A stretch of DNA of 64,000 nucleotides from Escherichia coli (GTDB lineage: Bacteria; Pseudomonadota; Gammaproteobacteria; Enterobacterales; Enterobacteriaceae). Below are positions 1 to 3,000 of the stretch, one piece after another. Positions within the stretch are counted from its first letter, which is position 1. Each line of letters starts with the position of its first letter. Location: the NCBI RefSeq assembly GCF_003991155.1, contig NZ_CP031297.1; one strand, 5' to 3'. A program made the position numbers.

Positions 1-3000
1 CCTGATGGCACAGAAAGACATTGAGAATATGCTTTCTGTCCTCCGCGAATATGGTTCCTGTGACCTGTCCATTACTCGGAATAGTCACGGGCATCACTAC
101 AGCCATTGGAACTGCATGAACATCGACGACAACGTGGACTTCACAGGGATCTTCCCTGATGATGATTCCATGATTGGCACCGGCATTGAAGGGATTAACC
201 AGGATATGGTCGAGCGCTGGCAAGACCTCTGGGAACGCTTTGTGCTGGAGCTGGCGGATGATGTAAAAAGTCTTTCCAAGAAGCTCGAAGCGGACGGGTA
301 CTCGCTGATCGAGGCCTCTCCATGCGAAGATGAAGTGGTTTGGGAACGGGCCACTGAAAACTACCTGGTGCGTGTTACTGAACTCCCTGAGCGGGATTTC
401 GATATGGGCCACTGGGATGACGAAGTAAGAGACCAAACAATTTGTTCTATCCTGGAAGGGAAAGAGCGAGTGCTTGGCCTACGTGTTGAGGTACTCTCTC
501 GTGAAAACGAGATTGTCCTGGGTGAAGAGAGTCTGCACGGCTTGACCGTTGCCAGTGATGACAAGAGCTACGCTGGCTACAGACGAGAACTTCTCCGGGG
601 AGCTATCCAGCAAACCAGGGACTTTTTCTCTCGCCACCTCAAAGCGGCATAACAAGGCAGGGGGAAACCCCTGCTTTACTTCCCAAGTCTTCTTACTCAT
701 GGTGAATACCATCAGTAAGCAGATTTTGTTCTCTTCGGAGAGCGAAAAGTGCGATAGCTGGTCGCCAAAAACAAACAGCAAATTAACGTTAATTTATTAA
801 TCCCTGCGGGAGTCTATCTCCTGCTGGAGATACCTCCCGTTATTTCTGGAAGTATCCATGAACAAATTCCAAGACTTTAAGTTGGTTTATCGTCAAGGTG
901 GTCGTCGCTTAGAGCGTGTCTTTACGGACACTCTTTACGCGAATGTGAAGCGTGTCGCTGACTCGTTTCCTCCGACCGTTCTTTGGCGCATTCAGCCAGC
1001 GTAAAACTCGGAACCTTAAAGCTCGGCTTTGGCCGTGACCTTTCAATAACCCATGCGGGTACACTTCCCCGCACGGGGTAGGTGTACCCATTAACTTTGG
1101 AGTACACCTTATGAACCAAGTAGCTAAATTGGACCTCGCCCAAATCCGTCAACAAGCCATCAATGATGGTCTGCTGGTGGACCAATCTTCCATCGGTAAA
1201 CAAGCTGGTTTCCTGACCAATGTGGCAGTGACCCCGGCAATTGTCGATGGAGTATTTGGTGCAGATGGTAAGCACTCGGTAGAAGACTTCCTTTTCATGT
1301 TTTTGCAGCTTTGTGTTGCTCAAACAAAGGTCGCTTTTACCGACAACAAGAATTGGGGAAAGATTCGTCTTTATTACCCCATGCCCACTGTAGATGGCTT
1401 TTTCAAACCCACTGAGGTTGTGATTAAGTCAGATCCTGTAACCGCAGATGTCACAATCATGATGGCCTCGGAAGAGGGCGCTCATTTGTGCTTGTGATAT
1501 TCACAAAATTCGCCTCCGTTTCGGGGGCGACCTTTTTAAACCCCTCGCCGGGGAGAACTCCCCGGCTGGGGAGCCTCCTTGGCACATTCTCCCGGTGTCG
1601 GGGTTTCCTTAAAACCCTGGCGACGGGGGTTTAAGGAAGCCTCGATGCTGGGGTTCACGCTAAGGAGAAAACCTATGTCTTACTACAAAGCTGACACCGT
1701 TCGTGAAGCTGCAAACGGAAACTGGCTATTCATCCTGGCGGCCCTAGCGCCCCATCTTGAACCAGCTCTCCGTAAACCTGGTCGTCATGTTTCTTGTCCT
1801 ATCCACGGCGGGAAAGATGGCTTCCGACTGTTCAAGGATGCCCACCTGACTGGTGGCGGCGTATGCAATACATGCGGTGCCAATCATGATGGTTTTGAGC
1901 TGCTGATGTGGCTCAATAACTGGGACTTTAAACAGTGCCTGAGCGAGGTTGGTGATTATCTGGGCGTTGAGAAAGAGCAACCCCAGTATCAACAAGCCGC
2001 TGCACCGACACGAGCTCCTGTCCAGGCCAAAGCGCCTGTTCAGCAAGAGCCTATGAAGGTGAATAACAAGGTTCTCGATTCCAAGAATCGTAAAAAATCC
2101 ATTGCCGGTACTCTGATTGCCCACGGTAAAGCTCCTTATGAGCATAACGAAGACAACGAGCTCAGCTACTTTGCCTTCATCCGTGACAAGAGCGGTTTGG
2201 AACGCACCATCTGGGGCGTGGATCTTGAAAGAGCCATTGGTGAAAGTGAAGCCAAGTATGGGGATGAGATCGTCATGACAAACCTCGGGCGCGAGCCTGT
2301 AACTGTCGTCGTTGAAGTTAAGGACGAGCAGGGGAATGTTGTGAGAGAACAACCTATGCAAACGCATCGCAACACCTGGCTGGTGGAACGTCGCGGCGCT
2401 ACGGTAACGCAGTTCCGCGCTCGCTCGAACGGTGGTGTTGAGCCGGTGAGTCACCATGTTGAGTCGGCCCCTGTGGTCAACCGCAAGGTAGAAACTCCGG
2501 CACCGCAAGTACAACCTGCGGCCACACAACCGGAAGAGCAAAGCAGCGAAAATAAGCCGAAAGTTGTTCCGATGTTTCGTGAACAACCTAAGCCTTGGTT
2601 GCTTGAGCTCCAAGAAGAAATGGAGAAGAGAATGGAGCGCGAACGCGCTTACAGTGCTCGTCTCCGTGAGAAAATCGAGAAGGTATGGAACGAGTGTTTG
2701 CCGTTCTCCAGTCATGTGACTGAGCCAATGCGTCTGTACTTCAAAAACCGCGAGCTGCTGTTCAAAGTTGATGAAGTAGAAAAAACAGACTGTCTGCGGT
2801 TCAATCCGGCTATGGCCTACTACGACGAAGATGGCAATGAAGTTGGGAAATTCCCGGCTATCGTCTGCGCTATCCGAGATGTGGAAGGCAACCTGGTAAC
2901 GCTCCACCGCACCTATCTCACCCAAAACGGTAAAAAAGCCAAGGTCGGCAACGCCAAAAAGATGATGCCCATTCCTGACGGTTTGGATGTCAATGGCGCG

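Follow-up and report, generated by a model that had tools for sequence, protein, structure and literature searches.

The 64,000-nucleotide stretch of Escherichia coli DNA analysed here (contig NZ_CP031297.1 of assembly GCF_003991155.1; hereafter the window, whose positions are counted from its first letter) begins in plasmid DNA, where a cluster of GC-rich hairpins stands immediately upstream of a gene for a primase-like protein. A first, sequence-only reading of the window placed these hairpins within about 170 bp before a primase start at 1675, and proposed that they could be a structured leader, a single-strand initiation signal or a priming site. Which of these functions do the hairpins serve, and do they act as RNA or as DNA? 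Our analysis indicates that the spacer is probably a transcribed and structured intercistronic mRNA, in which a terminator or attenuator (hairpin H1) is followed by a cis-acting leader (hairpins H2 and H3) that would govern translation of the primase. The H2/H3 leader perhaps also shapes the processing and stability of the polycistronic transcript.

Structure of the spacer upstream of the primase gene

Over its first 6 kb, the window matches hundreds of IncC (IncA/C2) plasmids with 100% identity (pAR060302, pVCR94 and the pSN254 type among them), and the region of the leader maps to positions 107,048–109,339 of pAR060302, in the order hypothetical open reading frame (ORF), 177-nt spacer, and gene of a "toprim domain-containing protein". 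The spacer (1498–1674) separates vcrx121, whose product has no Pfam match, from the toprim primase gene vcrx122 (pVCR94 gene names; Table 1). The translation start proposed at 1675 from the sequence alone is correct: it is an ATG preceded, at a spacing of 7 nt, by the Shine-Dalgarno sequence (SD) AAGGAG, and it opens on an N-terminus, MSYYKAD, that is kept in the homologues. The label "primase-like" was borne out by the three Pfam domains of the product.

Minimum free energy (MFE) prediction of the RNA folds the + strand of 1498–1680 into three successive hairpins, H1, H2 and H3, whose arms are also recovered by an inverted-repeat scan; the cluster described earlier is thus confirmed on this strand. 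The energy of the fold is −105.1 kcal/mol, against −65.3 ± 4.0 kcal/mol in 200 dinucleotide shuffles, none of which folded as well (z = −10.0). With DNA parameters, z is −8.3 for the + strand and −3.3 for the − strand. The fold of the + strand contains 7 G.U pairs and is about 26 kcal/mol more stable than that of the − strand, which contains 2, an asymmetry that arises because the G.U wobbles of the + strand turn into C.A mismatches on the other one.

The SD of the primase gene lies inside this structure. The segment 1575–1583 pairs with 1659–1667 in the MFE, centroid and alignment consensus (alifold) structures, so that the SD is base-paired in the helix at the base of H3. Preceding it, H2 is composed of an A/U-rich UAAACCCC signature, an outer CCCC/GGGG stem, an inner GCCGGGGA/UCCCCGGC stem and a variable loop. 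The long inner hairpin of H3 has an invariant core (GUCGGGGUUUCC.UAA / UUA.GGAA.CCUCGAU) and three invariant wobble pairs (U.G, G.U and G.U), and its duplex of 22 bp plus 4–5 bp amounts to about two to three helical turns, a length sufficient for RNase III.

The first hairpin, H1, is predicted to be a textbook intrinsic terminator of the upstream gene, which the sequence-only reading had not seen. It begins 13 nt past the stop codon of vcrx121 (1497) and consists of a 9-bp stem (UCGCCUCCG/CGGGGGCGA, 7 of the pairs being GC), a UUU loop and the U-run tail CCUUUUUAAA. The stem and the U-run are kept in IncA, Edwardsiella and pAsa4-type plasmids, with compensatory (C-G to U-A) and wobble changes, and H1 is absent from the pAQU, Pseudoalteromonas and Gallionella-type leaders, which are the lineages with a different upstream gene.

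Table 1. Features of the primase leader and of the neighbouring genes and unit copies (window positions; SD, Shine-Dalgarno sequence; MFE, minimum free energy).
Feature	Position	Strand	Description and basis
Upstream ORF, vcrx121	1111–1497	+	128 aa, hypothetical; ORF list; annotated coding sequence in pAR060302 and pVCR94
H1, predicted intrinsic (Rho-independent) terminator/attenuator	1510–1540 (hairpin 1510–1530)	+	terminator scan, MFE
H2, hairpin A of the two-hairpin unit	1538–1571 (hairpin 1541–1571)	+	4 bp + 8 bp; MFE, consensus fold of 11–12 homologues
H3, long form of hairpin B	1575–1667	+	9-bp basal helix, 7x6-nt internal loop, 22-bp helix, apical helix
Anti-Shine-Dalgarno CUCCUUGGC, 5′ arm of the H3 basal helix	1575–1583	+	MFE, consensus
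3′ arm of the H3 basal helix GCUAAGGAG	1659–1667	+	contains the primase SD AAGGAG (1662–1667); MFE, consensus
H3 long inner hairpin	1591–1652	+	22 bp (1591–1612/1631–1652) and apical 4–5 bp (1615–1628)
Toprim primase gene (vcrx122 of pVCR94), putatively served by the leader	1675–3402	+	575 aa; Pfam Zn_Ribbon_Prim, DUF7146, Toprim_3
Second unit copy, before ORF 1111	1047–1110	+	hairpin A 1050–1077 (UAACCC...GGG); hairpin B 1081–1108 (GGUGUACCC...GGAGUACACC), masks SD
Third unit copy, before small ORF 858–1004 (vcrx120)	796–860	+	hairpin A ~801–828; hairpin B 829–856 (GAUACCUCC...GGAAGUAUC)

Transcription of the spacer

Transcription was assessed from the published chromatin immunoprecipitation–exonuclease (ChIP-exo), 5′ rapid amplification of cDNA ends (5′-RACE) and RNA sequencing (RNA-seq) data of pVCR94 (PMC4207636, Table S3 and Dataset S1). 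Both genes flanking the spacer depend on the activator AcaCD: the expression of vcrx121 is 1255 in the wild type, 5 without acaCD and 6064 upon complementation, and the corresponding values for vcrx122 are 765, 8 and 3095 (PMC4207636). The nearest AcaCD box (86,650–86,678 of pVCR94) and transcription start site (86,713) lie 4 kb upstream, before vcrx114, and neither a box nor a start site is listed in the vcrx121–vcrx122 spacer (PMC4207636). Because both genes are AcaCD-dependent and no box or start site falls between them, the spacer is present in sense RNA, through read-through. Across the spacer there is an approximately 2-fold fall in expression from vcrx121 to vcrx122, and a Rockhopper operon break is placed at this point (PMC4207636), both of which agree with H1 being a leaky terminator.

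No promoter-like site (−35/−10 hexamers) was found on either strand in a scan of window 600–2000. In the traJ leader/FinP system of F-like plasmids, a conjugation-related gene has its ribosome-binding site (RBS) in a leader stem-loop, an arrangement that the primase leader resembles, but unlike traJ/FinP it is not accompanied by an antisense promoter-like site. A FinP-type antisense RNA was judged unlikely for this reason together with the poor folding of the − strand, and a structured antisense RNA is in general unlikely because the complementary strand folds much worse.

Conservation and covariation of the leader

Alignable homologues of the leader are present in IncA plasmids, in Photorhabdus khanii, in an Edwardsiella plasmid, in the Aeromonas plasmids pAsa4, pAhD4-1 and pK520-MPH, in two metagenome contigs, in the pAQU group (Vibrio and Photobacterium plasmids) and in a Pseudoalteromonas MOBH plasmid. 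Between the IncC and pAQU types, identity is 80% for the leader, 64% for the primase coding sequence and 48% for the upstream ORF, and between IncC and pAsa4 the respective values are 88%, 77.5% and 69%. Judged by these identities, the leader is better conserved than both flanking genes.

The structure derived from IncC is formed in 97.2% of the cells of an alignment of 12 variants, in which 6 pairs are changed on both sides (2 in the basal helix and 4 in the inner hairpin). None of 500 column shuffles attains any of five covariation measures, and sliding the 3′ partners by 1–3 columns brings pairing to 40–64%. Of the 22 pairs of the long helix, 17 are the same in all variants, a tandem U.G/G.U and one further G.U among them, and 4 change on both sides. 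Substitutions concentrate in the loops and in the internal loop, and changes from G.U to G-C or A-U, which are neutral on the + strand only, are frequent among the variants. The hairpins being conserved and their folding energies remarkable, the finding of the sequence-only reading therefore stands.

The length of H3 is 95, 96 or 98 nt depending on the lineage, and an internal AUG at 1645 shares the frame of the primase in IncC but not in the pAsa4 types. The spacer is non-coding, since these lengths break the frame and the frame of the AUG differs by lineage. A coding spacer, in the form of ORF 1488–1634, of in-frame extensions of the primase from TTG 1579 or AUG 1645, or of a hidden leader peptide, was rejected on account of the H3 lengths. 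Three other candidates were also considered. A P4 alpha-type iteron was rejected, as the GTTCAC at 1654–1659 sits in the variable internal loop; the GGA that follows H2, a possible CsrA-type site, is missing from the pK520 and metagenome variants; and visual inspection of the folds of the unit described below, for which no pattern search was made, showed no inverse core of an integron attC site (GTTRRRY).

The leader is carried by 846 plasmids, and no feature is annotated for it in the 46 records listed (plasmid and E. coli). Scans with Rfam 15 gave no family match for the leader, the best hits being miRNA models with 25 bits where 90 are required, and no family was matched by six distant leaders or by 19 kb of the gene cluster either. 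We found no description of the leader in the literature, our coverage of which was incomplete. A pattern scan of metagenomes anchored on the anti-SD...SD pair returned 95 matches, only 4 of them true homologues, and scans of viral contigs yielded chance matches or remote primases and nothing more.

Leaders of distant primase homologues

A protein-based scan of representative genomes identified 33 primase loci, for each of which the 140 nt upstream of the start were folded. In several lineages with 36–53% amino acid identity to the primase, the same order is kept in unrelated sequence, namely a hairpin with a C-run...G-run (corresponding to H2, and called hairpin A below), the anti-SD, a long hairpin, the SD and the AUG. 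These lineages include Gallionellales, Methylobacillus, Thiothrix and Sideroxydans metagenome-assembled genomes (MAGs), Azomonas, Pseudomonas duriflava, Methyloprofundus and an Alcaligenes plasmid. Seven contigs from the Gallionellales, Methylobacillus, Thiothrix and Sideroxydans MAGs share the arrangement GAUGCUUCCUUG ... CAAGGAGGCAUC-AUG, with z from −5 to −14, and an alignment of their own supports the fold. The anti-SD and SD pair as UUCUUUCCUGG / CCAGGAGAA in Azomonas and as AGGCUCCCUUUCU / AGAAGGUGAGCCU in P. duriflava, and this pairing is also present in Methyloprofundus. Long inner duplexes of unrelated sequence, equally long, are found in the Gallionella-type and Methyloprofundus leaders.

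The basal helix covaries in a lineage-specific manner in the Pseudoalteromonas, Gallionella-type, Azomonas and P. duriflava leaders, and the side of the SD towards which the anti-SD complementarity extends differs from lineage to lineage, which is therefore independent evidence that the helix itself, beyond the SD, is under selection. A covariance model built from the IncC-type leader finds six of the distant leaders (that of Azomonas and five MAG loci) at full length and ending at the right AUG, with E-values from 5e-7 to 1e-2.

Two further observations were made at these loci. In the Alcaligenes faecalis plasmid pGZAF1_VIM (positions 2700–2840 of locus L004), the 3′ end of the upstream dcm gene contains both a hairpin A-like element and the anti-SD, and the dcm stop codon precedes the primase AUG by 15 nt; ribosomes translating dcm could thus unmask the primase SD in this lineage, as in classical translational coupling. 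Group II intron RNA domains (RF00029 with 64 bits and RF02012 with 112 bits) adjoin the Gallionellales and Thiothrix primase loci (L027 394–470 and L032 6077–6226), which fits a mobile-element context.

A two-hairpin unit repeated across the gene cluster

After the covariance model had matched other spacers, all intergenic gaps of pVCR94 between 65 and 100 kb were folded. The AcaCD-dependent cluster in this region holds ssb, bet, exo, dcm, the primase gene and many hypothetical genes. Nearly every spacer of at least 58 nt between the co-directional genes vcrx087–vcrx125 ends in a two-hairpin unit. Its first member, hairpin A, is formed by (U)UAACCC, a GC stem-loop and GGG(G), and is directly followed by hairpin B, whose 5′ arm pairs with the SD, and often with the AUG, of the next gene. 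About 25 copies of the unit are present in 28 kb (75.2–93.3 kb of pVCR94, here called L139, and 15–25 kb of a second locus, L149), standing before ssb, bet, exo, dcm and many hypothetical genes. H2 and H3 (1541–1667) represent hairpin A and a hairpin B enlarged by the insertion of the long inner hairpin, an insertion that is peculiar to the primase copy. The copies were scored one by one by their z-scores, the MAFFT alignment of 22 short units being out of structural register. The 17 copies in L139 have z-scores between −2.7 and −8.7 (mean −4.5), with the SD at least partly paired in all 17 and the + strand folding better in 14. A strict descriptor of hairpin B recovers 5 of the approximately 17 copies, and most copies carry bulges.

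Without exception, the copies lie on the coding strand and have an SD-masking hairpin attached. The TAACCC motif occurs 22 times on the + strand and 6 times on the − strand of the 28.3-kb cluster, where 5.8 are expected, and 14 and 18 times in the remaining 65 kb of the backbone, where the expectation is 13.6. In the gap folds of pVCR94, the unit is absent from the tra operons and from the vcrx008–026 operon. Copies also adjoin the distant primase genes. Within the window, the copy before ORF 1111 is kept in 7 homologous plasmids with variation in the loops only, and the copy before ORF 858–1004 is matched by the covariance model (window 792–876), as is the homologous L001 12792–12863.

The repetition bears on whether these are simply generic intergenic palindromes (terminator remnants, 3′-end stabilisers or REP-like repeats), with the SD paired by chance because the spacer is rich in GC. 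Stem-loops that recur in transcribed intergenic DNA are known in the repetitive extragenic palindromic (REP) and bacterial interspersed mosaic elements (BIME), and in the promoter early stem-loop (PeSL) cassettes of T4-type phages. The unit resembles them in that short GC-rich palindromes are repeated in the spacers of co-directional small genes. Many spacers of the cluster are indeed strongly structured, some copies are near-identical over about 110 nt, as if spread by duplication or recombination, and the energy for opening the primase RBS is unexceptional (see below). Unlike REP/BIME, however, the unit has a single orientation, is bound to the start codon, and possesses a fixed 5′ UAACCC and an obligatory SD-masking partner hairpin, and unlike the PeSL cassettes it has no early promoter. 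The one-sided distribution of TAACCC, the pairing of the SD in every scored copy, the compensatory changes, and a primase leader that is more conserved than the coding sequence and keeps its architecture over 36 to 60% protein identity all argue against incidental palindromes, which we consider an improbable explanation.

The same observations bear on a function of the hairpins in single-stranded DNA (ssDNA), as a single-strand initiation (ssi) signal, a primosome or primase loading site, or a Frpo-like promoter, operating in conjugation or in lagging-strand synthesis. The + strand folds strongly with DNA parameters, the neighbouring gene encodes a Zn-ribbon/Toprim primase, the ssb, bet, exo and dcm genes of the surrounding cluster are of the establishment type, and three hairpins in about 170 nt resemble the complementary-strand origins of the G4 type. 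Frpo and ssi elements, the single-strand promoters and priming signals in the leading regions of F and ColIb-P9 (PMC11541004), share with the leader the strand-specific, imperfect long hairpins and the intergenic location on a conjugative plasmid near establishment-type genes. In contrast to them, the leader has no promoter hexamers in its stem, nor has either strand between 600 and 2000, and its stable strand is the mRNA-sense strand rather than the template. It is tied to an SD and AUG, and lies about 30 kb from oriT, away from the leading edge; the transferred strand and the nic site of IncA/C are not established in the literature (PMC5587640). Moreover, the basal helix consistently takes up the SD, and its complementarity follows the SD region from lineage to lineage, which would make no sense in a DNA site. 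The unit is found upstream of about 25 unrelated genes, in each case in register with the SD and start codon, and the invariant tandem U.G/G.U would form destabilising G.T mismatches in DNA. A role in ssDNA is, in our view, very improbable. Among the functions first suggested for the hairpins, the structured leader is thus supported by an element that is strand-specific, includes the SD, varies by compensatory and wobble changes and belongs to an AcaCD-dependent transcription unit, whereas the single-strand initiation signal and the priming site are disfavoured by the register of the unit copies, the lack of hexamers and the G.T mismatches.

A broader proposal is that the units constitute a hitherto undescribed family of intercistronic RNA modules, each of two hairpins, which would punctuate accessory and DNA-metabolism gene clusters, act as a post-transcriptional control layer across the whole cluster and be read by a dedicated factor or nuclease. 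Such a family would extend over MOBH elements (IncA/C, pAsa4, pAQU and the Pseudoalteromonas plasmid) and over contigs of Betaproteobacteria and other genomes that bear unclassified elements; the primase copy would be its enlarged member, with the invariant wobble hairpin as an operator, possibly for the primase. We regard this as a tentative proposal, possible but doubtful.

Several details of individual copies and spacers were also observed. In the unit before ORF 858–1004, positions 848–856 read GGAAGTATC in the window and GGAGGTATC in pVCR94 (L139 14749–14757), a single change by which the SD becomes weaker and hairpin B loses one pair. At vcrx100 of pVCR94 (L139 1497–1516), hairpin B and the SD GGAGG point to an AUG 17 nt downstream of the annotated start, which makes an error in the RefSeq start of vcrx100 probable. 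Three spacers (L149 16044–16263 and 20895–21095, and L139 5061–5139) share a near-identical segment of about 70–110 nt (..CCGGGCGCATCCGCCCGGTTCGGGACGTGGTGCGCC..), from which it follows that the unit spreads or homogenises inside the plasmid by duplication or recombination.

A second repeated motif, GCGATAGCTGGTCGCCAAAAACAAACAGCAAATTAACGTTAATTTA, is made of a small hairpin and a CA-rich tract and occurs in seven copies, each 25–40 nt upstream of a hairpin A. It was located at window 749–788, in the L139 gaps 53–318, 4524–4717, 8264–8497, 11421–11623 and 14554–15012, and in the L149 gaps 16044–16263 and 20895–21095. Every copy lies in a long spacer that matches a Rockhopper operon border of the published RNA-seq. 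The motif differs from the AcaCD box (TTTGCACCC.AAAAGGGCA) and may be an internal promoter or an element of the 5′ untranslated region.

Possible mode of action of the leader

If the spacer works as a cis-acting mRNA leader, H1 would attenuate transcription, with about half of the AcaCD-driven transcripts going on past it, and H2 and H3 would fold co-transcriptionally. In the basal helix of H3 the anti-SD would then hold the primase SD, so that the 30S subunit could bind only with the helix open. Because the SD is occluded by this helix, the rate of primase translation would be set or regulated by the leader: masking is expected to lower translation, and something would have to open the helix. 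Candidates for this opening are a factor that reads the invariant wobble core, cleavage of the 22-bp duplex by RNase III, and thermal breathing. Hairpin A may serve as an insulator, as a stabiliser of the 5′ or 3′ end once the transcript has been processed within the A/U-rich UAA tract, or as a protein site.

Hairpins that sequester an RBS are known from the phage T4 genes e (lysozyme), soc and 49, where they silence read-through transcripts, and masking over a long range is known from MS2 and L35-L20. As in those systems, a 5′ complementary segment of an intercistronic region pairs with the SD region in a polycistronic message. The primase leader differs from them in that neither an internal promoter nor an upstream translating ribosome was found that could free the 5′ arm; the upstream ORF stops 78 nt before the anti-SD, and an overlapping dcm is found only in the Alcaligenes plasmid. 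It also differs in that its masking hairpin is coupled to a signature-bearing hairpin A and repeated about 25 times.

A specific version of this cis-acting leader is that the duplex of H3, of 22 bp or more, is an RNase III processing site, where cleavage would part the anti-SD from the SD, activate primase translation and set the mRNA ends. The well-known RNase III-processed sites of the lambda N leader, of E. coli adhE and of T7 (R1–R5) likewise have a duplex of at least 20 bp, directly upstream of an RBS and coupled to it, between genes of a long transcript. A continuous 22-bp helix with an apical helix, closed by the SD-masking helix, would be a suitable substrate, as would the equally long, unrelated duplexes of the Gallionella-type and Methyloprofundus leaders, and the intercistronic position in a long polycistronic unit is also in keeping with processing. 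In contrast to the known sites, the primase leader is a predicted substrate, and the conservation of its core and wobble pairs goes far beyond the usual demands of RNase III, an enzyme for which there is no sequence consensus that could be scored. In addition, the duplexes in the short sister copies, which stand before other genes, would not be long enough for the enzyme. We therefore consider RNase III processing unlikely.

Alternatively, H3 could be the operator of a trans-acting protein that clamps the SD-masking fold, the simplest candidate being the primase itself, through autogenous repression. Autogenous translational repression is well known for T4 gp43, gp32 and RegA and for the gene V protein of f1. 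The primase is a nucleic-acid-binding Zn-ribbon enzyme, and no copy of the unit other than that of the primase carries the long inner hairpin. In homologues with as little as 60% protein identity, the core sequence and the three wobble pairs of this hairpin remain unchanged, and a different long hairpin is found where the protein has diverged to about 36–41% identity, as would be expected from co-evolution of a protein and its site. An invariant wobble core that is confined to the primase copy, and that is swapped where the protein is highly divergent, suggests a specific reader, possibly the primase. The operator is, however, a purely inferential construct: no RNA-binding domain was detected in the primase, and the invariance of the stem could also be explained by a shallow phylogeny and the double constraint on paired bases. 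An operator of this kind seems distinctly unlikely.

Some results weigh against a regulatory leader as such. The computed cost of opening the primase RBS is 8.9 kcal/mol for the SD and 10.5 kcal/mol for the footprint, where the medians for the cluster genes are 7.3 and 12.9 kcal/mol, and neither the pairing probability of the SD nor the opening energy singles out the primase gene among them. With an opening cost no higher than that of the cluster genes, masking may perhaps amount to a modest constitutive tuning and not to a switch; as all genes of the cluster are masked at a similar cost, the effect may be more of a tuning. The alignable group is also phylogenetically shallow at the sequence level, with most stem pairs invariant and hence uninformative. 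One lineage of primases (L011–L019 and L023, from Shewanella, Yersinia and others, possibly within integrative elements) has the two hairpins and an unpaired SD. The leader has no known trans-acting factor, ligand or alternative fold. In particular, an attenuator- or riboswitch-like pairing of the 5′ arm of H2 with the 5′ arm of H3, which can be drawn for IncC, was provisionally rejected, as no counterpart was evident by inspection of the Gallionella-type sequences, without an alignment test.

Genomic surroundings

Further upstream in the window, a hairpin at 657–674 (GCAGGGGGAAACCCCUGC, then UUUACUU) stands directly after the stop codon of ORF 5–652 (vcrx119, called NgrC in some records). The site is terminator-like, is scored as such for either strand, and falls where the predicted vcrx114–119 operon ends. 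Just 3′ of the primase operon (window 3400–8200), the backbone is broken by the ARI-A resistance island, with IS5075, tnpA and tnpR of the Tn3 family and a class 1 integron. The backbone with the hairpin units therefore accounts for the lesser part of the 64-kb window.

Implications for IncC and related plasmids

In conclusion, H2 and H3 make up a conserved and unannotated structured leader of a plasmid primase family, with a predicted regulatory effect, within a previously unnoticed two-hairpin punctuation of the gene clusters of MOBH plasmids and of related, unclassified elements. IncC (IncA/C) plasmids are major carriers of multidrug resistance, and the AcaCD-activated genes make up about one quarter of their backbone, for which a post-transcriptional control of the cluster was previously undescribed. 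The leader gives a testable handle on the dosage of the plasmid primase; should it merely tune translation, it would be a useful annotation and an unsurprising one. The motif itself can be used as a covariance model for annotating such elements in plasmids and in contigs of unclassed elements. A strand-specific unit in about 25 copies suggests that the whole cluster is subject to a shared post-transcriptional logic.

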